From the sequence record NC_052983.1: a stretch of DNA of 58,536 nt; one strand, 5' to 3'. The notes below the pieces were generated by a model, which made no database searches, had not been told where the DNA came from, and saw nothing but the letters and a program-made list of their open reading frames with translations. The position numbers were made by a program, and so were the translations under genes. The stretch is from Escherichia phage E21. Below are positions 17,791 to 31,410 of the stretch, one piece after another (within the stretch, counting starts at the first letter, position 1; each line of letters starts with the position of its first letter).

Positions 17791-17819
17791 AATATAATGC
17801 TACCGCTTTCAGGTGTCAA
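17791..17819 (-). promoter_or_regulatory. sigma70-like promoter, cassette A (TTGACA-17-TATATT) with conserved leader
   Basis: Minus-strand TTGACAcctgaaagcggtagcatTATATT; ~85-bp cassette repeated near-identically at 19510..19590 and 21000..21075. Confidence 0.6.
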
Positions 17820-17898: not shown

Positions 17899-18120
17899 TT
17901 ACCGTGTGAGCATCGTAACCACGGATTTTTTAACCATTTCCAAGGAATCCCCGCCAAGGCTCACACCTTGCCCGCAGAAAGTCCACGGCTTGAGGTGGTG
18001 TGGTGTCTTGGCAATCGTCCCGATCCATACACCGCCCGCAACAACGTAATAAATATTTTCGCCTCGCTCTTGGTAAATCTCGATCGTCTTATCCAAGGTT
18101 GGATTATTTACCGGCTTCAT
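17899..18120 (-). CDS. hypothetical protein
   Basis: Track ORF 17899..18174 trimmed to internal Met (MKPVNN) to limit overlap with upstream gene. Confidence 0.35.
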   Translation of the reverse strand: MKPVNNPTLDKTIEIYQERGENIYYVVAGGVWIGTIAKTPHHLKPWTFCGQGVSLGGDSLEMVKKSVVTMLTR

Positions 18121-18754
18121 TTTCTCCCCCTTTAATCTTAACGAGTTCTTGCTTGTACTCGGATCCGAGCACATAATTTTTATTTTCTTCCTTGGGATAA
18201 GGCAATACCGGATATCGAAGCAACTTTTTATACTTCTTCACGACCGAACGGCTCCCCGTAAAATAAACGTAACGATGCTTAGATGTTCTGACTTGTCGAT
18301 ACGTCTTGCTTTCCTTTCCTTGATAATGCCGAGAGTGTTTACCTTGCTCCGTGTATTTATCGGTGCGCGCTTTCGTCGCCCCCGTGTAGATGAAATTAGA
18401 CGCTTGATAAATATATCCGTTGTGGTTCATACCGCGATCCGCATACGACACGATGACAAGGTTTTCACTTTTCAACTCAGCCATAGCGAAGGCGATCAAC
18501 TGCGACGGAGCGTTACGGATTGGACGAATAAAACAAAGTCGGTTTAACTCAAAAACGTGGCTTTTGTACTCCTCGCCCAATATTCCAACACATAGCGGGT
18601 TGCTGGCCGGCTTACCGATAGTTAGAACCCCGACAAGCTCCTCGTCTTCGAAGAACCCGAAAGCGTAAGATATGCTAGGTCGACGTTTCGCATAATGGTA
18701 GTTTAGGATTATGTCTAAACAGTCTTTAGGATCAACGCGTCTCATCGTGTACAC
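18104..18754 (-). CDS. hypothetical protein with GNAT-like C-terminal motif (possible acyltransferase / Mom-like)
   Basis: 216 aa; ...IVSYADRGMNHNGYIYQASNFIYTG resembles GNAT motif B; assignment is tentative. Confidence 0.45.
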   Translation of the reverse strand: MYTMRRVDPKDCLDIILNYHYAKRRPSISYAFGFFEDEELVGVLTIGKPASNPLCVGILGEEYKSHVFELNRLCFIRPIRNAPSQLIAFAMAELKSENLVIVSYADRGMNHNGYIYQASNFIYTGATKARTDKYTEQGKHSRHYQGKESKTYRQVRTSKHRYVYFTGSRSVVKKYKKLLRYPVLPYPKEENKNYVLGSEYKQELVKIKGGENEAGK

Positions 18755-19552: not shown

Positions 19553-19581
19553 AATATAATACTACCGCTTTCAGGTGTCAA
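19553..19581 (-). promoter_or_regulatory. sigma70-like promoter, cassette B (TTGACA-17-TATATT)
   Basis: Near-identical to cassettes A and C. Confidence 0.6.
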
Positions 19582-21029: not shown

Positions 21030-21058
21030 AATATAATACTACCGCTTTCAGGTGTCAA
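21030..21058 (-). promoter_or_regulatory. sigma70-like promoter, cassette C (TTGACA-17-TATATT)
   Basis: Near-identical to cassettes A and B. Confidence 0.6.
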
Positions 21059-22253: not shown

Positions 22254-22282
22254 ATATTAGCAACACCTCGGGCCGGTGTCAA
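22254..22282 (-). promoter_or_regulatory. sigma70-like promoter D (TTGACA-17-TAATAT), shares the -35/upstream element of cassettes A-C
   Basis: Minus-strand TTGACAccggcccgaggtgttgcTAATAT. Confidence 0.45.
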
Positions 22283-22287
22283 CAAGT

Positions 22288-22562
22288 TTTTATCTATAAA
22301 AATTCTGACGGAACAAAGGAAACGCGCCCACCGGTGCGCCCGTACATACATATAAGTCGGCCAGTTTGTACTTATCTACAAAAATTTCGGGCTTACTTCA
22401 AAAACCTCGCGGGCCGATGATTTTCTGTGACGATTTAAAAACTTTTCCGGCCGGCTTACTTCAAAAACCTCGCGGGCTGAAAAAATTCCCGTGAGAAATA
22501 AAAACCGGCCAATGGATTTATCTACAAAAATTAGAACCTTACTTCAAAAACCTCGCCGGTTG
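22288..22562. repeat. iteron-like direct repeat array (3x TATCTAyAAAAATT and 3x CTTACTTCAAAAACCTCGC(G/C)GG)
   Basis: Motif A at 22291, 22373, 22519; motif B at 22392, 22455, 22538; in the divergent control region between minus promoter D and plus promoter 22621. Confidence 0.7.
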
Positions 22563-22620
22563 ACGGAAATCCTCGGGTAACATCGATTAAAACTTTACGG
22601 CCAAAAATACATAAAAACGT

Positions 22621-22649
22621 TTGACACCGCAAACAGGTTAGATTAGTAT
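22621..22649 (+). promoter_or_regulatory. sigma70-like promoter of plus-strand early operon (TTGACA-17-TAGTAT)
   Basis: TTGACAccgcaaacaggttagatTAGTAT, then RBS AAGGGG and ATG 22691. Confidence 0.5.
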
Positions 22650-22690
22650 TCTCGGACATTAAAGATGATTAGTCACAACAAGGGGAAAAC

Positions 22691-23122
22691 ATGATCGAGT
22701 CAGAAGATATTATTTTCGTAAACGGCGACAAACCTAAAATCGATAACTCGCCAGCGCTAGAAAGACGCAACACGGTTAGTGTAGAACTAGAACGAGAGTT
22801 AACCGCAGCGTCTTCGATTCCGGACAAACTTACAGTAGTACCAACAAAAGGGAGACCAACCAGCATGGTAGGTATGATCGTATCGTTAGATGTCGGAGAC
22901 GTGTTCACTAAATCCGAGTTTATTCTTGAAGTTTCAGGTCTCGACGCCATGAGCGAGAGCGTAGACCTGACTACACGAAAAGAAAAACTCAGACAAAGCG
23001 TAAAAGCGTCTATGACACACGCTAAAAAGAAAACTAAGGGCGAATATACTTTAGAAACGCACCACTTTATTACGCCGTTGGGTCGCCTTTACATTCAAGT
23101 TTTAGTGACCCGTATTTCCTGA
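22691..23122 (+). CDS. hypothetical protein
   Basis: 143-aa ORF, first gene after promoter. Confidence 0.5.
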   Translation: MIESEDIIFVNGDKPKIDNSPALERRNTVSVELERELTAASSIPDKLTVVPTKGRPTSMVGMIVSLDVGDVFTKSEFILEVSGLDAMSESVDLTTRKEKLRQSVKASMTHAKKKTKGEYTLETHHFITPLGRLYIQVLVTRIS

Positions 23123-23203
23123 GCAATTTTTTGTAGGTTTCACGTTTTTTAAAAAGGCGTGACACCCTATGGTAAACAACCACCCTATCGGAGAGAAAAA
23201 CCA

Positions 23204-23515
23204 ATGGAACGCAACGACAATTTAGAGCACACCACCCCCGCAGACCCGGATACGCAAATCGTCAAGTTGTTAGAGGGGAACCCGGATCTTTTAAAGCACT
23301 TTTATAAACTTTCCGCATTAGCGGGAAACGTGGGGGAGATGGAACGCTCTTTCGAAGAACGAGTTGACGCCGTGTTTAAAGTAGGTATCCGCCTAGTCAT
23401 GGTCGCGAGCAACCGGAAAAACCTTATCGTAACCGATGACGATGTGGCAAAGGCGGAGAACTCAACACTGGAAGTTAGCGAAAATAACGGCAATGTTAAA
23501 TATATGATCAAGTAG
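23204..23515 (+). CDS. hypothetical protein
   Basis: Start set at MERNDN, which has RBS GGAGAG; the upstream ATG lacks an RBS. Confidence 0.45.
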   Translation: MERNDNLEHTTPADPDTQIVKLLEGNPDLLKHFYKLSALAGNVGEMERSFEERVDAVFKVGIRLVMVASNRKNLIVTDDDVAKAENSTLEVSENNGNVKYMIK

Positions 23516-23520
23516 GTAAT

Positions 23521-23841
23521 ATGAAAAATTCAAACGTAGCACTCGCCATTGATTCCGTTTTGGTAAAAAAGAAAATTGATATTATCCCGGTTTTTAAATC
23601 GTTAGAGGAAGAATATCAAATGCGGATACAAGCGTCGTGGTCAGGCATCACCGCGCACACGCCAGAACGACGCATCTACACCCACGGCCACCCGACTACT
23701 AAGATGGCAACAACACCGGAACAACGTACAACGTATCGCCTCCGTCTATTGAAATTCCTACGGTGGCTCTACGCGAACAACTACACAACGGGGCCACTGT
23801 TAGAAATCAAATCGTGGCTAGAGGAGCAAGAGGAATGGTAA
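23521..23841 (+). CDS. hypothetical protein
   Basis: 106-aa ORF. Confidence 0.45.
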   Translation: MKNSNVALAIDSVLVKKKIDIIPVFKSLEEEYQMRIQASWSGITAHTPERRIYTHGHPTTKMATTPEQRTTYRLRLLKFLRWLYANNYTTGPLLEIKSWLEEQEEW

Positions 23842-24182
23842 AGGTCTTATACAACAGCGAACAAGCGCAAGTAAACCAGTTGCGAGACCAGATTAAATCG
23901 CACACTGAGTCGTTTGAAACAGCGATGGCCGAAGTCGACCAGATCATTAAAGAAAATATCGAGACATACCTAAACGATATATCCGGGTTAATGATGTCGA
24001 TAGTTAGAGTGTATGACAACGCGGAGATTGAGGACAAAGCGGTGGCCTTAGATCTTGTTCACTCTAAAGCGGTAACTCGTTTAGCTGCTATCGAAGATAA
24101 GAGCATAGAACTACGCGCCCATATTGAAAACTTAGTATCCACCATTAAAACCGGAGTGATTAAAAACAATGAAACCATTTGA
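23835..24182 (+). CDS. hypothetical protein (coiled-coil-like)
   Basis: Start set at MVKVLYN with RBS GAGGAGCAAGAGGA; overlaps previous stop. Confidence 0.45.
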   Translation: MVKVLYNSEQAQVNQLRDQIKSHTESFETAMAEVDQIIKENIETYLNDISGLMMSIVRVYDNAEIEDKAVALDLVHSKAVTRLAAIEDKSIELRAHIENLVSTIKTGVIKNNETI

Positions 24183-25257
24183 TAAATTTATTGCTTTTGC
24201 AATATCTGAACCAGCAGACCCTAACAATACGACTTCGTTTTCCGCATTAGCTAACGGGACAGAAGACCAACTAAAACAACTAGGCCGAGAACTAGAAACA
24301 AGCCTGAGAAACTTACCGATCGGAGACCCAAGCGCTATGCAGTGGACGCGCCACGGTTTTGCTAAACCCGACGAGAACGCCGAACCGATCACCGTTGTAG
24401 ATGAAGTCCTAGGGGACATGGAAGACACACCATACGTTATGATAGACGAAGCGGGTAAATATCTTGTGTTCACTTTCGAAGAACGTGCTCGAATGCTAAG
24501 CCCGACAACGATCAAGGACGAATTAGAGGTTAAAGTAAAAGATTGGATAGAACGAGTTGGTGACACCCCGACAAAACGTGAACGTAATGATATGCGCGAT
24601 GAAATCATCAATGACTTGTTGCCAAAGGCCACAATAAAGCGCACCAAGACATACGCCATGATCATCAAGGGTGTTCTTATTGTCTTCGCCGGTAGCAATA
24701 ACATCGGTGAAAAAGTAGCATCGGCCGTAAGAAAGGTAGTAGGGTCTCTCCCAGTAGTACCATGGTTTGAGCATTCGGCCCTCATTACGGAGTTTCTAAA
24801 GAAAATCGCTACGGTAGACTTTGACCCGGAAGATGCAGTAGGCCAAGCGCTAGATAAATTTGAGATTGTCCGTAGTGCTAAAGTCTCCGCTGAAACCGGT
24901 GCGTACACTTTCAAAGATGTTTTTGACATCACGAATGACGTTTCCTTCAAAGAAGCGCTAGGACAAACTAACGGATACTCATACCCTCTCGGGATCACCG
25001 AAGCGAATTTAGAATTACGACATGACGCCACAGACAGCCCTATCGGTTTTGTTCTTACGGCCAAAGGCGTTTTAAAGAGCGTAAATTGGAATGACGAGCC
25101 GGAAAATATTTTCGACGACTCAGTGTTTGACACGAACGAGGAACGGGAGCGTGCTCGATTTATTTTCTCTACGTGGGACGCTTACACCTTAGTTACGGCC
25201 GTGCTAGGAGCGCTACACAACGCAAACGCAAACCGATTTGTAGAAGACGATATGTAA
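24169..25257 (+). CDS. rdgC: RdgC-like recombination-associated protein
   Basis: 362 aa; block RNDMRDEIINDLLPKA...VRKVVGSLPVVPW closely parallels the E. coli RdgC core (...LRKSLGSLPVVPL) from memory. Confidence 0.7.
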   Translation: MKPFDKFIAFAISEPADPNNTTSFSALANGTEDQLKQLGRELETSLRNLPIGDPSAMQWTRHGFAKPDENAEPITVVDEVLGDMEDTPYVMIDEAGKYLVFTFEERARMLSPTTIKDELEVKVKDWIERVGDTPTKRERNDMRDEIINDLLPKATIKRTKTYAMIIKGVLIVFAGSNNIGEKVASAVRKVVGSLPVVPWFEHSALITEFLKKIATVDFDPEDAVGQALDKFEIVRSAKVSAETGAYTFKDVFDITNDVSFKEALGQTNGYSYPLGITEANLELRHDATDSPIGFVLTAKGVLKSVNWNDEPENIFDDSVFDTNEERERARFIFSTWDAYTLVTAVLGALHNANANRFVEDDM

Positions 25258-25259
25258 TT

Positions 25260-25460
25260 ATGAATACAGAACGTAAAAAACTGGCGTCTAACCTGACAAG
25301 ACTAAAAGTCGGAGAGTCTTTCTTCGTAGAATGTCTTCCGAAAGACCTAGCCCACGTTCGACGCCTAGCTTATAAGCTGAATATTAAGTTATCCATGGTT
25401 CGTGTCGATGTCGACCCGATCTACGGTACATTGGGGACGAGGATATCTCGCGTCAAGTAA
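25260..25460 (+). CDS. hypothetical small basic protein
   Basis: 66-aa ORF from internal Met of track ORF 25173..25460. Confidence 0.35.
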   Translation: MNTERKKLASNLTRLKVGESFFVECLPKDLAHVRRLAYKLNIKLSMVRVDVDPIYGTLGTRISRVK

Positions 25461-25467
25461 AAACGCA

Positions 25468-25503
25468 TTGACACCTTGCGGGGGATTAGTTACGATTCCC
25501 CCG
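25468..25503 (+). promoter_or_regulatory. sigma70-like promoter (TTGACA-17-TACGAT) overlapped by a 7-bp inverted repeat (operator-like)
   Basis: TTGACAccttgcgggggattagtTACGAT; inverted repeat CGGGGGA..11 nt..TCCCCCG spans the -10. Confidence 0.45.
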
Positions 25504-25526
25504 TATTATAAACGTAAGAGGCTCAC

Positions 25527-26345
25527 ATGATTAAACTTATGCACTATGCGGATTACGACTACCGCGACCCAAGTAAACATGAACACCGAATATTCCCGGT
25601 TCCGGCCGGAATTAGAGTCGGGGTGATCATTAAACGCGTTAAGTCCATCGCGAACCCAACAAAGATTGAGGTGTGGCAATACGACGAAAAAGGTAACGCG
25701 ATTACTGACCTTACCGGCTTCGCCCCACACATCGAGGAAATATGTTTAAAAGCGTACCAATGGCTTACAGAACATACATTATCTCTATCCGGGATCTCTG
25801 ATACTGAGTCCGATGCGTATGACTCCGGGATCGTAATCGATGGGTATTTCCAAGATATCCGTCCCAACTATGGAACGGCCGACGAGACATTAGACCAGTT
25901 GGAAGAATGGTTATTAGATGAATTCGAGACGACGGACGAAACTAAAACCATATTTCAATATCTGGCCGTTACGACCTACGAGTCAGCGCTTCGCGGTAAA
26001 GACGGTAAAGACATTCATCTACGCCGTTCTAACCTACGCCATGCGTTGTGCGCATCGAACAATGCTGACCACACCCGAGCAAATATCTCTGTCTCGGATA
26101 ATGTGCCACGTTTTACCGTGTGGCCGATGTCTATGTCACCTCGTTCTTGGGATATGAGCAAGCCCGGCCCGAACGCTTGGGACTCCATGGCGGGCGTCGC
26201 AGCACCAAGAGGTCAACAATTCGAAGACCAGTTAAATACATGCTTTGAGCGCGGTTTTATCGGCGGGCTAGATATGCGAGCGTTTCACGGCTGGAATACA
26301 AGAGTTACCGCGTACCAGTTTATTACTGAGGACGCAACGTTATGA
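25527..26345 (+). CDS. hypothetical protein
   Basis: 272-aa ORF; RBS AAGAGG. Confidence 0.5.
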   Translation: MIKLMHYADYDYRDPSKHEHRIFPVPAGIRVGVIIKRVKSIANPTKIEVWQYDEKGNAITDLTGFAPHIEEICLKAYQWLTEHTLSLSGISDTESDAYDSGIVIDGYFQDIRPNYGTADETLDQLEEWLLDEFETTDETKTIFQYLAVTTYESALRGKDGKDIHLRRSNLRHALCASNNADHTRANISVSDNVPRFTVWPMSMSPRSWDMSKPGPNAWDSMAGVAAPRGQQFEDQLNTCFERGFIGGLDMRAFHGWNTRVTAYQFITEDATL

Positions 26346-27109
26346 TTGACGGGGAATTGGATATTATGGCACTACCACAGATTAAAGACTTTGCCGGATA
26401 CGATGGCCCGTTAGACCACCCGATCATTATGCCTGTTCCGTCCCTCATGAGGGCGGAAGTCTATGTATCCCACGATTTAAAGGATATAGAAATCAACGGC
26501 GTTTTTCGCGACGGAACCTATTCTGCGTCGAGATGGACGGGGTTATGCCCGGAATTAGAAGAACAATTTTTATTCCTAGCGGAGTTGTTGAAAGACGACT
26601 TTAAGGAAAAATGTATCCTCCCATTTAGAGTTGGTCGAGACAAGTCCGAACTACGGGAAGTCGATAGATTTATCCCGGGGATCACCGGAAACATCGGTTT
26701 TGAAGTGTATTTACATGACACCGGGGATTTCGGCACCAAGTATACTCAGAAATACTTAGCCAACAGTAAGATGACGGGAGAGAAAGACGACGGCGGGCTA
26801 GTATCCGCCTCGATCGTGAGCGCTTACGGGTTCGGGGAACTAACGCCAGTTTCGCGCGAGGTAATAGACGTTGTGCGGATTTACGAAAGACGTTATCAGA
26901 TTAGCCACCGACTCAACCTCATGGACGACGAGGGGTATTTGCTGTCATTAGCTCCCGGAGAACTGAAACGCGTTGACGCGGTACGAACTGCTGAATTCTA
27001 TTTCGAACAAGGATACCCCAACGTGATTATTCTCAATTCCGGACGTCCGTACAACTCCGACGCTACCGGACAAATGTATTACTATTCACCGGAGACATAC
27101 GACTTATGA
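26342..27109 (+). CDS. hypothetical protein
   Basis: 255-aa ORF, ATGA overlap with neighbours. Confidence 0.5.
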   Translation: MIDGELDIMALPQIKDFAGYDGPLDHPIIMPVPSLMRAEVYVSHDLKDIEINGVFRDGTYSASRWTGLCPELEEQFLFLAELLKDDFKEKCILPFRVGRDKSELREVDRFIPGITGNIGFEVYLHDTGDFGTKYTQKYLANSKMTGEKDDGGLVSASIVSAYGFGELTPVSREVIDVVRIYERRYQISHRLNLMDDEGYLLSLAPGELKRVDAVRTAEFYFEQGYPNVIILNSGRPYNSDATGQMYYYSPETYDL

Positions 27110-27552
27110 CCGAGCACAAGAAATTAACCCGCGTGTACGGCGCTAACCTTTGTACTTTTTGCGGTAGAGCATGGGAAGACGGAGAAGAAATCCCCGATTG
27201 CGTTGCGCCCCAAGAGGAGGTTCAAAAAACACGCAAGAAATTTTTCCGGGCATACTTCCCGGCGCCAACCCACTTTACCGCATGGTTGTTATATGGGAAT
27301 AACGGTAAAGCGATGGTCGCCTATGCGGATCATCGGGAGGTGGCTTTACGCATCGGGTATTATTGGACGAGAAACAGAAAAGATATTGTAAAGGTAGAAG
27401 AATCGGCGGAGCTAACCCGTTTTGCTGTTTGGCAATCCGTACCCTATATTGAGATTAATCCGGTAATTATTAATAAACTAAACCAGTTAAGCAAAAAAGG
27501 GGATAACATAATAATATCTCCCGCTAATTTTAAAAAGGCCATTTATGACTAA
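27106..27552 (+). CDS. hypothetical protein
   Basis: 148-aa ORF. Confidence 0.5.
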   Translation: MTEHKKLTRVYGANLCTFCGRAWEDGEEIPDCVAPQEEVQKTRKKFFRAYFPAPTHFTAWLLYGNNGKAMVAYADHREVALRIGYYWTRNRKDIVKVEESAELTRFAVWQSVPYIEINPVIINKLNQLSKKGDNIIISPANFKKAIYD

Positions 27553-28177
27553 GTTAGATGAAGTACGCAAATTATCATACTCGTTCAAACTGCCCGAAGA
27601 TGTCCGAGAGGGAACCTATGTAGTTTTACGCTTCGAATCTGAGGTAGGAAAGTGGTATCAGAACGCAAATATTGTTAGCTATATGCTCGGTGTTATCAGC
27701 CACACTACTAAGACACAATTCCAAGTTTCTTGTGAGGGTTTATCCTCCCCGATGCGTTTCGGGCGCGATGGCGGTATCCGCGCAGACAGCAAGGGACAAG
27801 TTGGTGGCGCACTAAGAACGTCAGTATTCCTTGCCGGTAGTGCAGATACCGCAGAAGAATACATCAAGGGCCAAGTAGAACAACACAACGACCCCGAAGT
27901 AGTAAGACGCGAGCCAACGTTCCACTTAAAAAATGCTGACGATTTGATAGGTATCATCGTCAAGCTGGACAAGCTGATAAACGATGCGACAACGCTATGG
28001 GGCGCAATACCTGAAAAATGGAAAGGCCGAGAGCAACGACGTAGCCGAAACGACCGAATACCGCATGATATGTTAGTAGCGATCTTGTGTAATCCGGACG
28101 CATCGGACATATTAGCAGACCTATTTAAGTCCATAGCTAAAGCATTCGGAGTATCAACCAAAAAAGAGGAAGAATGA
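27545..28177 (+). CDS. hypothetical protein
   Basis: 210-aa ORF. Confidence 0.5.
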   Translation: MTKLDEVRKLSYSFKLPEDVREGTYVVLRFESEVGKWYQNANIVSYMLGVISHTTKTQFQVSCEGLSSPMRFGRDGGIRADSKGQVGGALRTSVFLAGSADTAEEYIKGQVEQHNDPEVVRREPTFHLKNADDLIGIIVKLDKLINDATTLWGAIPEKWKGREQRRSRNDRIPHDMLVAILCNPDASDILADLFKSIAKAFGVSTKKEEE

Positions 28178-28914
28178 TGATCAATCCCTACGCGGTGGAA
28201 TTACAGAAATTGAAAGACGCCAAGAAACACATTCCAAAGCAGATAAAAGACCAATGGCGTACTCCGGACTGGCTTTTCTACGCGCTAAACTCTTTATACG
28301 GCCCGTTCTTGGTAGATTTGTTTTCAGATGGACAGAATGCTAAGTGCTCCCGGTATTTCATGGCCGAGGATAATGCGCTACAACAGAACTGGAAAGAAGC
28401 ACTAGAAGACGCCAAGTTTGAATTCCTTATCGATGCAGACTGTGCGGGGTACGATGCTACTGACGATCTAAAGACGGCCAAGTGTTTTGCTAACCCGCCA
28501 TACAGCCCGGCTAAGTATATCGGTAAAGGGCGTAAGAATAGAATACCGCTCTGTGGTATGCGAAATATCATGGCTAAGGCCTACGAGGAACACAAGGCCG
28601 GTTGCCCTTCATTCTGGTTGCTTAAATCCGCCACGTCAGAAGATTGGTGGCCTAACGAGACCGCAAGCCAGATAATCCACATCAAGGGTAGAATTGCTTT
28701 CGAGAAACCGGTGTGGTTTAGAGATGAGGTCGTAGACCGCGTGGAAAGTAGTGCTGCTTTCGGTGCGTCCGTTGCTATTTTTAACGGAATAAACGATATT
28801 CAAGAACCGGAAGCCTACATCAGTCGAGATACCTTAAAATTAATAGGGGAGCCACTTGCTGAAATTAATGCGGAAAGACGCGCCGAGTGGATAGCTAGTT
28901 TCGACGATCTATAA
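28174..28914 (+). CDS. phage-type DNA N6-adenine methyltransferase
   Basis: N-terminal WRTPDWLF and catalytic-type FANPPY motifs typical of the phage Dam family; RBS GAGGAAGA. Confidence 0.7.
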   Translation: MMINPYAVELQKLKDAKKHIPKQIKDQWRTPDWLFYALNSLYGPFLVDLFSDGQNAKCSRYFMAEDNALQQNWKEALEDAKFEFLIDADCAGYDATDDLKTAKCFANPPYSPAKYIGKGRKNRIPLCGMRNIMAKAYEEHKAGCPSFWLLKSATSEDWWPNETASQIIHIKGRIAFEKPVWFRDEVVDRVESSAAFGASVAIFNGINDIQEPEAYISRDTLKLIGEPLAEINAERRAEWIASFDDL

Positions 28915-28919
28915 TTTAA

Positions 28920-28938
28920 GGGGGCCTTGTGGCCTCCC
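28920..28938 (+). other. stable stem-loop immediately 3' of the methyltransferase gene (no U-run)
   Basis: GGGGGCC-UUGU-GGCCUCCC, 7 bp with one G.U. Confidence 0.35.
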
Positions 28939-29155
28939 TATTAAAAGGTAAATCCCGTGAAAATTCTAAAGTATACATTGCTTGTGTTGATTGTGATTTC
29001 TGCGGTTGTCGGCTCATACATGGCAATACGATCAACCTCATGCGCGGAGTATGGCCAGAAGAACAAAGTTGCGACCGAATACTCATTGTACGAGGGTTGT
29101 GTGATAAAAAACTCCGGCCACCCGTAAAAAAGTTCACCTCAAGCGAGAAAAATAG

Positions 29156-29184
29156 TTGACACCGCGATCCGGAGTCGATAGTAT
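29156..29184 (+). promoter_or_regulatory. sigma70-like promoter (TTGACA-17-TAGTAT), same family as 22621
   Basis: TTGACAccgcgatccggagtcgaTAGTAT, then RBS AAGGGGG and ATG 29216. Confidence 0.5.
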
Positions 29185-29215
29185 ACCCCTACACCAAGAG
29201 ATAAGGGGGTACGAC

Positions 29216-29749
29216 ATGGATCATAAGTACAAGGTTTCGGACAGGAATACCGTCGCCCGAGTAGTGGGCCGTCATCGCCAATGGTGCGACGCATACGTTG
29301 AGGTAAAACGTATCGTTCGTGAAATGTCCGAAAAAGGGATAACCGATCTGGAAGTTGACGCGATGCCGATCCACGCGCACCTAAACCGGATTGCTGGTTT
29401 CAACTCATTTTTTGCCAACACTCAAAACGAATGGTGGCTAAGATTTAGACCATTTGAAGCCTACCCACAAGATAACGGGAAGACGCTAATTAAGTACCGC
29501 GACTCCCACCCGTGTAACATCTGGCGAAAAGTAGAAAAGATGGAATTCGACCGAGAAGATTTAGAACGAAGAATAAGTCGTATCGAACAAATATTACAAG
29601 GACAGCCGGAAACAATCGCATACGATAGAAAAGTATTTCGAATTCGTAGAACACAAGAATTATCTCAAACCGGCATGTCAAACCGAAAAGCGAGAAAAAT
29701 CGCATGGGAGGAAGCCGGTAGAGAATTCCCGGGAGAAGACCATGTTTGA
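29216..29749 (+). CDS. hypothetical protein
   Basis: Start moved from track call 29156 (which begins inside the promoter) to ATG 29216 (MDHKYK). Confidence 0.5.
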   Translation: MDHKYKVSDRNTVARVVGRHRQWCDAYVEVKRIVREMSEKGITDLEVDAMPIHAHLNRIAGFNSFFANTQNEWWLRFRPFEAYPQDNGKTLIKYRDSHPCNIWRKVEKMEFDREDLERRISRIEQILQGQPETIAYDRKVFRIRRTQELSQTGMSNRKARKIAWEEAGREFPGEDHV

Positions 29750-29993
29750 TGAAATACGGAGAATAAAACGGAAATATGAAATGTTGCCTCCCGGAGATAA
29801 CATACCTCTGTATGGCGATTTCATTGAGTTTAAGGACGAATTTAACGGAGCAACATATATTGGGGAGGTGTTAGATCACCATTTCAGTTCAACACCTCAC
29901 GATCAAATTTGGAATGTCTTCGTAGACGGCGTGACCATATCTGCGAAACAATCTGAGATAACAAGAGTATACCGACGCAAACGGAGAAAATAG
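29742..29993 (+). CDS. hypothetical protein
   Basis: 83-aa ORF. Confidence 0.4.
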   Translation: MFDEIRRIKRKYEMLPPGDNIPLYGDFIEFKDEFNGATYIGEVLDHHFSSTPHDQIWNVFVDGVTISAKQSEITRVYRRKRRK

Positions 29994-29994
29994 C

Positions 29995-30858
29995 ATGAAA
30001 GACCTAACAAAACCTTTAGTAGAAATCGATATCGACGTTAGAACGGATTACCTACCTCACGGTGTTTTATCCGTTGATATCAAAACCGAGGAAATATCTC
30101 ACGAACTAAAATCGTTACTAGCCGATACATTTGAAGCCATGGTAGTTCGTTTGATTTCTTCGGAGAGAAAATACCAAAGAGGGAACTCTTACCAGAACGA
30201 AGAACTAGCGCAAAGCGGTGAACTCGCATTCCGGATCGCCGACCGGCTTAAAAATTTCCAAGATATTGACGCCATGAATTTGATTATGTTTTCCATGTAC
30301 CATCAGGCGTATTCTGGACAACAAATTCATCTAATGGATAGTTGTATTAAAGATTTCCATCGCGGGGTGGTAGACGCGTATAACTTCATTGATTCTACTT
30401 GCCCTCCCGGTTGTGCTGAGGAAGCGTTCCGAACACTGCTTATGAGCGAGTTAGTCGACACTACCATGAAAGAACTCGGCAAAGGCGATAAAACCTCATA
30501 CAAGATGTTAGGTGGCGATACGGCCAAGTTATCCGTTAACCCCCCTAAGTCCCTAAAAGCATTTGCGGATCAACTAGGCGACGAGGAGCTTTACATCTAT
30601 AACATTCTAGGCATGAATTTTGTGATCCCATGGTGGGGCGATACCGTAGTAGCGAATAAGGAAAAACAACTACTCGTGTTCCCGGGTGTACCATATGTTG
30701 ATCGAGAGACCGATAGATGGCGTTCACCAGACTGTGAAGATTTCCAAAAAGACGGTCTCGTTATCGGCACAATAGATGTCTCGAAAGAAAGAGAATATCT
30801 CATTGATGGTTTTATTCTATCTCTGTCCGCATTCAACCGCAAACCGCTAGAGGGCTAA
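29995..30858 (+). CDS. hypothetical protein
   Basis: 287-aa ORF. Confidence 0.5.
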   Translation: MKDLTKPLVEIDIDVRTDYLPHGVLSVDIKTEEISHELKSLLADTFEAMVVRLISSERKYQRGNSYQNEELAQSGELAFRIADRLKNFQDIDAMNLIMFSMYHQAYSGQQIHLMDSCIKDFHRGVVDAYNFIDSTCPPGCAEEAFRTLLMSELVDTTMKELGKGDKTSYKMLGGDTAKLSVNPPKSLKAFADQLGDEELYIYNILGMNFVIPWWGDTVVANKEKQLLVFPGVPYVDRETDRWRSPDCEDFQKDGLVIGTIDVSKEREYLIDGFILSLSAFNRKPLEG

Positions 30859-30860
30859 AA

Positions 30861-31325
30861 ATGAAATTAGTATACATAGCTGGCCCATACCGCGCAGACA
30901 CCAAAGAGGGCGTGGCTGAAAATATCCGTAAGGCACAAGTAATCGGGCTATCTCTAACCACCAACGGACATACATTAGGGGTATTCCCCGTGATCCCTCA
31001 CATGAATACGGCGCACTTTGAGACCCACACTTTAACCGTATCACAAAAATTCAGCGCTTTTATTGAGCCGGTGCCAGATGAATACTGGCTACAAGGAACA
31101 ATGGCATTGATGGAAAAATGCGATGCGGTTTTATTGACGCACCCACAAGCCGGCATAACAAGCAAGGGAACGCGGGCGGAGGTTATGCGCGCTATTGAGT
31201 TGGGTATTCCTGTTTATGACCACATAAACGGTCTACTATCTGACCTTAGAGACGAATCAACGCCTCTACGAAGTATTAATGTTTTGAATGACAAGCGAGA
31301 ATTTCTCGGGGCGGTTGATGAGTGA
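30861..31325 (+). CDS. DUF4406-like / nucleoside 2-deoxyribosyltransferase-like protein
   Basis: N-terminal MKLVYIAGPYRA motif typical of this Rossmann-like family; RBS AGAGGG. Confidence 0.5.
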   Translation: MKLVYIAGPYRADTKEGVAENIRKAQVIGLSLTTNGHTLGVFPVIPHMNTAHFETHTLTVSQKFSAFIEPVPDEYWLQGTMALMEKCDAVLLTHPQAGITSKGTRAEVMRAIELGIPVYDHINGLLSDLRDESTPLRSINVLNDKREFLGAVDE

Positions 31326-31391: not shown

Positions 31392-31410
31392 AAGGGGCGT
31401 AATGCCCCTT
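31392..31410. terminator. bidirectional rho-independent terminator at the convergent junction of the plus early operon and the minus lysis/structural operon
   Basis: AAGGGGC-GUAAU-GCCCCUU perfect 7-bp stem; U-rich on both sides. Confidence 0.7.

Follow-up and report, generated by a model that had tools for sequence, protein, structure and literature searches.

The interval from position 22691 to position 31325 of Escherichia phage E21 (NC_052983.1) was analysed within the whole 58,536-nucleotide sequence, referred to below as the window. It carries 16 genes on the plus strand and looks like a family-core DNA-handling module rather than a fast-evolving host-takeover cassette. The explanation favoured here, with moderate confidence, is that of a DNA-handling block common to the chi-like phages, divided into three units and expressed in mid-infection, in which the tandem genes g07 and g08 code for accessory factors with a lysine-less ligase fold. 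An initial annotation had described the interval as one operon of about 15 early genes in which new host-interaction functions might be found.

Organization of the block

The block extends from the ATG of the first gene to the stop codon of the last, with all genes in the same direction. Fifteen of them code for products of 66 to 362 amino acids (aa), as annotated initially, and one further gene of 56 aa at 28957-29127 brings the number to 16. Shine-Dalgarno-like sequences were found upstream of nearly all of them. Overlaps of 4 to 14 nucleotides (nt) occur at g03/g04, g04/g05, g07/g08, g08/g09, g09/g10, g10/g11 and g13/g14, and gaps of more than 40 nt only after g01 (81 nt), g06 (66 nt), g11 (42 nt) and g12 (88 nt). 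About 26 phage genomes in GenBank are 96-99% identical over the 8.6-kb interval and belong to the genus Lavrentievavirus (Casjensviridae, chi-like; Proteus phage pPM_01 group). The phage analysed here is likewise a Proteus phage of that genus. The same genes are annotated in these relatives, nearly all as "hypothetical protein". The gene map is as follows, with pI denoting the isoelectric point.

g01, 22691-23122, plus strand: 143 aa; DUF7609 / phrog_6647
g02, 23204-23515, plus strand: 103 aa; acidic; no family
g03, 23521-23841, plus strand: 106 aa; basic; phrog_7734 (unknown function)
g04, 23835-24182, plus strand: 115 aa; acidic; probable coiled coil (low-score coiled-coil family matches only)
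g05, 24169-25257, plus strand: 362 aa; RdgC-like DNA-binding protein (PF04381, phrog_724)
g06, 25260-25460, plus strand: 66 aa; very basic (pI 10.3); phrog_7200
g07, 25527-26345, plus strand: 272 aa; predicted DNA-ligase adenylation-domain fold without conserved lysine; Chi gp55 family, phrog_6886
g08, 26342-27109, plus strand: 255 aa; tandem paralogue of g07; predicted ligase-like fold, lysine-less
g09, 27106-27552, plus strand: 148 aa; basic; N-terminal Cys-x2-Cys...Cys zinc-ribbon-like motif (by eye); counterpart of Chi gp54
g10, 27545-28177, plus strand: 210 aa; orphan (phrog_34189)
g11, 28174-28914, plus strand: 246 aa; Dam-type N6-adenine DNA methyltransferase (PF05869, phrog_111)
g12, 28957-29127, plus strand: 56 aa; N-terminal hydrophobic segment, two cysteines; membrane- or lipoprotein-like
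g13, 29216-29749, plus strand: 177 aa; basic, arginine-rich orphan (phrog_35002)
g14, 29742-29993, plus strand: 83 aa; no orthologue in the four other genera compared
g15, 29995-30858, plus strand: 287 aa; acidic; mosaic
g16, 30861-31325, plus strand: 154 aa; probable nucleoside 2-deoxyribosyltransferase-superfamily (NDT-like) protein

The motif TTGACACC-N15-TAnnAT was present at seven sites in the window, compared with 0.31 expected. Four of the sites are on the minus strand and head the cluster of short leftward genes, and the three on the plus strand (22621, 25468 and 29156) lie in the gaps before g01, g07 and g13. These three sites and the hairpin behind the block are listed below.

P1, 22621-22649, plus strand: sigma-70-like promoter TTGACA-17-TAGTAT; heads unit 1 (g01-g06)
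P2, 25468-25496, plus strand: sigma-70-like promoter; heads unit 2 (g07-g12)
P3, 29156-29184, plus strand: sigma-70-like promoter; heads unit 3 (g13-g16)
Hairpin, 31392-31410, no strand assigned: GC-rich; putative bidirectional terminator separating the block from the lysis genes, which converge on it

Other genera were searched with the looser pattern TTGAC(A/T)-N15-18-TAnnnT. A promoter-like site at the position of P1 precedes the g01 orthologue in Saba, Kokobel1 and Chi, the position of P2 is kept in Saba, Kokobel1 and Jacunavirus, and that of P3 in Saba and Kokobel1 (Saba, L004 4183, 6930 and 10515; Kokobel1, L006 6037 and 8940, L007 2605). The hairpin had a calculated RNA folding energy of -13.4 kcal/mol (z -3.0), and no terminator-like hairpins were found at the internal unit boundaries. 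With three positionally conserved promoter-like sites and one terminal hairpin, the block is best described from its sequence as three promoter-headed units with likely read-through, and not as a single operon. Transcription by the host RNA polymerase would begin at three successive sigma-70 promoters close to consensus and end at the hairpin. Unit 1 would provide the DUF7609 protein, three small proteins, the RdgC-like protein and a small basic protein. Unit 2 would contribute the two ligase-fold paralogues, the zinc-ribbon protein, an orphan, the Dam methyltransferase and the small membrane protein, and unit 3 a basic orphan, two variable genes and the NDT-like enzyme. The genes of unit 2 from g07 to the Dam gene are arranged as if translationally coupled, as they are in Chi.

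The g07/g08 pair

The g07 family comprised about 16 to 18 sequence clusters in protein libraries of 5.8 billion and 1.84 billion entries. It was present in at least 173 phage records, all of them of chi-like phages and always annotated as "hypothetical". BLASTP detected no significant similarity between g07 and g08, and a comparison of shallow profiles yielded 34%; the relationship emerged from deeper alignments only. With these, hhalign aligned the two family profiles over 213 columns with a probability of 95.2% (E 2.6e-8), which identifies g07 and g08 as tandem paralogues. The g08 type is confined to the clade of Lavrentievavirus, Kokobelvirus and Cenphatecvirus.

The AlphaFold2 model of g07, calculated from an alignment of 16 sequences, reached a predicted template modelling score (pTM) of 0.70, with a well-predicted core at residues 25-180. 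For g08, modelled in a separate run from six sequences, the pTM was 0.75 and one of the five models was confident. Foldseek on predicted structures, which had been proposed initially as a check, was run with the g08 model and returned phage DNA ligases. In the BFVD database, family members from Enc34, Saba and JS26 were interspersed with annotated phage DNA ligases among the matches. The predicted models of both g07 and g08 show the adenylation-domain fold.

Neither the 16 g07-type nor the 6 g08-type sequences contained an invariant or near-invariant lysine in the core. The nucleophilic lysine of motif I (KxDGxR) was absent from both alignments; at the corresponding place, as judged by eye, g07 has (V/L/I)-P-x-G-x-R and g08 has V-P-S-L-M-R. 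No conserved lysine was found in the C-terminal strands of either family, where the lysines of motifs IV and V were sought. There is also no room for an oligonucleotide/oligosaccharide-binding (OB) domain, as the chains of both proteins (272 and 255 aa) stop once the final two strands of the predicted adenylation domain are complete. Because every catalytic lysine and the OB domain are lost, standard nick sealing through lysyl-AMP would be impossible for g07 and g08. By eye, the first-strand regions IFPVPAGIR (g07) and IMPVPSLMR (g08) may correspond to AEIKYDGVR of T7 ligase, and VIDGYFQD of g07 to MLDGELMV; hhalign supported neither assignment.

The closest known system is the adenylation domain of ATP-dependent DNA ligases, such as T7 gp1.3 (1a0i), the enzymes of Chlorella virus (2q2t) and African swine fever virus (6imk), and Pmar-Lig (6rce). 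In contrast to these, g07 and g08 lack the lysines of motifs I, IV and V and the OB domain, are acidic, occur as a tandem pair and show no profile similarity. Non-catalytic proteins with a ligase fold are the m3G-cap-binding domain of snurportin-1 and the poxvirus polymerase processivity factor A20/A22R, but these are eukaryotic or poxviral, have other partners and are not related in sequence to g07 or g08. A literature search on heterodimeric or inactive phage ligases, on Chi gp55 and on RdgC in Casjensviridae found nothing relevant. As far as these searches show, the duplicated lysine-less ligase-fold family of Chi gp55 has gone unrecognised in the annotation and literature covered.

Other products of the block

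The block proteins were compared with the profile libraries Pfam-A, PHROGs, NCBIfam and PADLOC, the last for ten proteins. Only RdgC, the Dam-type methyltransferase, a probable nucleoside-deoxyribosyltransferase-superfamily protein and DUF7609 were recognised. The three families named in the initial annotation were thus found again, although its DUF4406 label for g16 did not score, and DUF7609 was added by g01 (102 bits with Pfam). As had also been stated there, the remaining products have no recognisable family; the four libraries assigned none of them to a housekeeping phage family.

The g05 protein matched PF04381 (RdgC) with 80.3 bits (cut-off 25, E 2e-22) and phrog_724 over residues 1-360. 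A search of the PDB gave the solved RdgC structures of Pseudomonas aeruginosa (2owy, E 1.1e-11) and Escherichia coli (2owl, E 3e-8). Compared with bacterial RdgC, only the central 110-130 residues align, and g05 is 60 residues longer. RexA of phage lambda reportedly resembles RdgC structurally. RdgC homologues were present in 231 of 50,697 phage records; they are uncommon in phages, as noted initially, yet a standard feature of the chi-like family.

The g11 protein resembles the Dam methyltransferase of the phage T1 type (PF05869, 104 bits, cut-off 28.1, E 9e-30; also phrog_111). It contains the catalytic (D/N)PP(Y/F) motif as NPPY at residues 107-110. The RefSeq label 'PAPS reductase' (phosphoadenosine phosphosulfate reductase) of this gene was rejected as a mis-transfer from the fusion family phrog_33262. 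GATC is neither avoided nor enriched in the genome (215 sites, about 226 expected), a count that is silent on the specificity of g11.

The g16 protein matched DUF7768 with 28.1 bits (cut-off 26, E 2.6e-6) over the N-terminal 50 residues only and phrog_355 with E 1.4e-20. Matches to DUF1937 (17.7 bits, cut-off 23) and PF05014 (Nuc_deoxyrib_tr; 16 bits, cut-off 28.8) were below the cut-off, and DUF4406 was not among the Pfam matches at E <= 0.1. By eye, g16 keeps a Gly-Thr-x-x-Glu motif; the closest known group is that of nucleoside 2-deoxyribosyltransferases, DUF4406 and DUF1937.

By sequence, nine orphans are left (g02, g03, g04, g06, g09, g10, g13, g14 and g15). A Pfam scan of 34 orthologues of unknown block genes from four other genera gave no family, the PHROGs of these orthologues were all of "unknown function", and NCBIfam gave nothing for the block proteins. 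No match to a PADLOC or anti-defence family was credited among the ten proteins examined; a PADLOC match of g04 to LmuB (17.6 bits) fell on the coiled-coil part and was treated as compositional. PDB sequence searches with g01, g07, g09, g15 and g16 and profile searches with the families of g01, g10, g13 and g07 returned nothing meaningful. A match of g13 to designed double-psi beta-barrel (DPBB) proteins (E 0.008) covered only 28 residues and was not counted as meaningful.

Between the Dam gene and g13, an open reading frame of 76 aa (28929-29159) was rejected as a gene, with stop codons found in close relatives. The real gene, g12, lies in another frame and has homologues in Kokobel1 (gp04, 57%, E 6e-20) and Saba (gp33). 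Comparison with these showed a hydrophobic N-terminus and an 'STSC' motif, and from its sequence g12 is possibly a lipoprotein or exclusion factor. Public records disagree on the region after the Dam gene, giving a plus-strand open reading frame, a minus-strand one or none. In g15, residues 1-111 match Kokobel1 gp06 (54%) and, by eye, have a DAMN(Y/L)IMF motif in common with Chi gp51, and residues 179-282 match Saba gp36 (30%). Judged from these matches, g15 looks like a fusion or mosaic, with two modules that other phages encode in separate genes.

Conservation among chi-like phages

The gene order of the block is kept across five genera. Kokobel1 and Saba have orthologues of g01-g11, g13 and g16 in the same order, and Jacunavirus those of g01, g03, g05, g06, g07, g11 and g13 and of the zinc-ribbon start of g09. 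The orthologues in Chi are gp62 (g01), gp58 (RdgC), gp55 (g07), gp54 (g09-like) and gp52 (Dam). Those in Serratia phage JS26 are gp28 (g01), gp33 (RdgC), an unannotated g06 orthologue (hhalign, 98.5%), gp38 (g07-like; hhalign, 82%, and a structural match in BFVD), gp39 (g16; 42% identical) and gp43 (Dam). A weak link was obtained between g02 and JS26 gp29 (hhalign, 56%). With the same method no g08-type gene was detected in Chi, Jacunavirus or JS26, and g03 and g09 were not linked to gp30, a winged helix-turn-helix (wHTH) gene, and gp40 of JS26, respectively.

The clusters JS26 gp15-gp45 and Chi gp62-gp42 resemble the block in position, being divergent from the short-gene cluster and convergent with the lysis genes. 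They share with it the landmarks DUF7609, RdgC, g06-like, g07-like and Dam, and in JS26 also the NDT-like gene. They differ in that g08 is absent and most of the small genes cannot be aligned. The JS26 cluster contains an additional Dcm-like methylase and the wHTH gene, and that of Chi contains ThyX and other inserts. The product of JS26 gp15 (L008 7132-7422), an isolated essential middle gene, ends in '...AVTLIITRTE', which by eye resembles the conserved C-terminus of DUF7609 proteins such as g01 and gp28; gp15 may be a second DUF7609 paralogue.

Timing and essentiality in phage JS26

RNA sequencing of JS26 at 5, 20 and 40 min showed that the leftward short-gene cluster (gp01-13) is early, while the rightward genes gp15-45, including those for RdgC, Dam, the NDT-like protein and methylases, are transcribed at 20 min and form the middle class (PMC8754663). 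In a preprint on transposon insertion sequencing of JS26, 8 of 30 middle genes were essential, including gp28-gp30 and gp32-gp33 (bioRxiv 10.64898/2025.12.19.695335). The orthologues of g01, of RdgC and probably of g02 are therefore essential in JS26. The g07-like, NDT-like and Dam genes were not named as essential (bioRxiv 10.64898/2025.12.19.695335), and the g07-like gene seems to be dispensable there.

By analogy, the JS26 data would argue against early expression, which had been assumed initially and is now doubtful, and against a purely accessory unit 1. A cluster of host-interaction genes is likewise doubtful; the conserved order and the essential genes of JS26 fit a core role in DNA handling or regulation better than an accessory anti-defence one, and an anti-defence function is possible for some members (g07/g08, g12, g14 and g15).

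Proposed role of the block

In the explanation favoured here, the interval would be the rightward DNA-handling block of all Casjensviridae, reaching from the divergent control region to the lysis cassette and, by analogy with JS26, expressed mainly in mid-infection. Unit 1 would control phage recombination or replication intermediates or later genes and would probably be needed for growth. The Dam protein would methylate the phage DNA, and g16 would act on nucleosides or nucleotides. The g07 and g08 proteins would descend from, or at least share the fold of, a DNA-ligase adenylation domain. Perhaps as a pair, they would bind to nicked DNA, to DNA ends or to a nucleotide and serve as accessory factors in phage DNA metabolism.

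A more specific proposal is put forward tentatively and is rather unlikely to hold. According to it, g07 and g08 would be the founding members of a phage-specific class of ligase-derived proteins that lack the lysines and the OB domain, and would work as a pair co-translated with the zinc-ribbon protein and Dam. The pair would sense nicks, cohesive ends, adenylylated ends or NAD+/ATP. It would either manage cos ends or recombination intermediates together with RdgC, or dampen a host response relying on nicks, ligase or a nucleotide signal.

Several results weigh against the favoured explanation. Pfam searches with 37 members of the family (E <= 10) gave no ligase family, and a PDB profile search with the g07 family gave no ligase. 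The comparison of g07 and g08 with a profile of 77 T7-type ligases by hhalign gave a probability below 1%. An exhaustive HMMER search with the g07 profile also returned no ligase; only about 18 of its 336 matches were full-length relatives. The long multi-stretch matches in that search were treated as spurious, as two that were checked were WD40-repeat proteins at profile positions 27-65 and the rest had the same pattern. The AlphaFold2 models were moderate, with a mean predicted local distance difference test score (pLDDT) of 67 and 70, and both proteins are acidic (pI 5.1 and 4.65), which is atypical of DNA binders. The putative promoters are known only as matches to the consensus, and transcription running on from P1 beyond unit 1 would cause the units to overlap. 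Finally, JS26 is distant (22-42% protein identity), and timing and essentiality may not transfer.

The block might alternatively be an early host-takeover or anti-defence operon, the orphans of which inhibit host defences or redirect the host machinery. The strong sigma-70 promoters would suit unmodified host polymerase, small or acidic orphans are numerous, and protection or exclusion is a classic task of proteins such as Dam and a small membrane protein. Unit 3 also varies between genera (g14 unique, g15 mosaic), and the apparent dispensability of the g07-like, Dam and NDT-like genes in JS26 is that of accessory genes. However, the syntenic block of JS26 is expressed in the middle phase and its early block is on the opposite strand, the gene order is constant across five genera, the orthologues of g01 and RdgC are essential in JS26, and no PADLOC or anti-defence family was credited among the ten proteins examined. 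On balance such an operon is considered unlikely.

It is also conceivable that g07, with g08 as its partner, is active through the ligase or ATP-grasp fold by a mechanism without lysine, for example with His68 as nucleophile or with non-covalent ATP-dependent chemistry, and modifies DNA ends, nucleotides or protein, possibly together with Dam. The polar residues R30, H68, D105, D110, D159, D162, R166 and R167 are invariant across g07 sequences of 24-69% identity, which could mean that the protein is still an enzyme. R167 and D110 are retained even between g07- and g08-type proteins, and the coupling of g07 to Dam, in Chi too, would suit a joint action. On the other hand, H68 is replaced by glutamate in g08, and the JS26 genome is described as unmodified. 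To our knowledge, no enzyme of the ligase/capping superfamily has been described that works without lysine. An active enzyme of this kind appears improbable, more so than a takeover operon.

That the ligase-like fold is an artefact of prediction and g07 and g08 are unrelated orphans is very improbable: the pLDDT is moderate, the alignments are shallow (16 and 6 sequences), four of five g08 models were poor and support at the sequence level is absent, but the g08 model is matched by independently calculated BFVD models of homologues from Enc34, Saba and JS26, which also lie among viral ligases.

Flanking regions and genome-wide features

The 58.5-kb genome consists of a replication module, the leftward short-gene cluster, the rightward block, the lysis cassette and the structural genes. 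The 424-bp divergent intergenic control region between leftward cluster and block (22267-22690) contains three exact 19-nt copies of CTTACTTCAAAAACCTCGC (0.01 expected), each preceded by an A/T-rich TTATCTA(C/T)AAAAATT-like box. From their sequence these repeats are iteron- or operator-like and could represent a replication origin or an array of regulator binding sites.

The leftward cluster, presumably the early one, is subdivided by near-identical 29-nt promoter cassettes of the sequence TTGACACCTGAAAGCGGTAG(T/C)ATTATATT on the minus strand (17791-17819, 19553-19581 and 21030-21058). Their common spacer is absent from the rightward promoters and suggests a shared regulator-binding site. The cluster codes for a Mom-family DNA-modification protein (18104-18754, minus strand; PF25680, E 1.6e-35); no Pfam family was found for the other nine proteins of the cluster that were tested.

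CCWGG, the Dcm/EcoRII site, does not occur in the window (1-58536), whereas 66.3 +/- 6.2 sites were expected from dinucleotide-preserving shuffles. TGCA is depleted about three-fold (51 sites compared with 142 +/- 10). These counts point to strong selection against particular restriction sites. Genomes 96-97% identical to this Proteus phage have been deposited as phages of Enterococcus, Staphylococcus, Pseudomonas and Salmonella; near-identity makes such host labels hard to accept, and contamination or mis-assignment may lie behind them.

Significance

Isolation of chi-like phages is widespread, with therapy or biocontrol of Proteus, Salmonella, Klebsiella and Providencia as the aim, and about one third of each genome is annotated as "hypothetical". 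As a gene cluster the block is already known, being present in about 170 genomes and having a profiled counterpart in JS26. The ligase-fold result for g07 and g08 is not a surprise but offers a useful starting point. It gives a first structural clue to the Chi gp55 family, for which the question becomes what ligand a lysine-free ligase domain would bind. The finding in JS26 that an RdgC-like protein and a DUF7609 protein are each essential to a lytic phage also raises problems that can be tested. A core block that is expressed in mid-infection and partly essential in a relative would shift the focus from anti-defence to replication, recombination and regulation.

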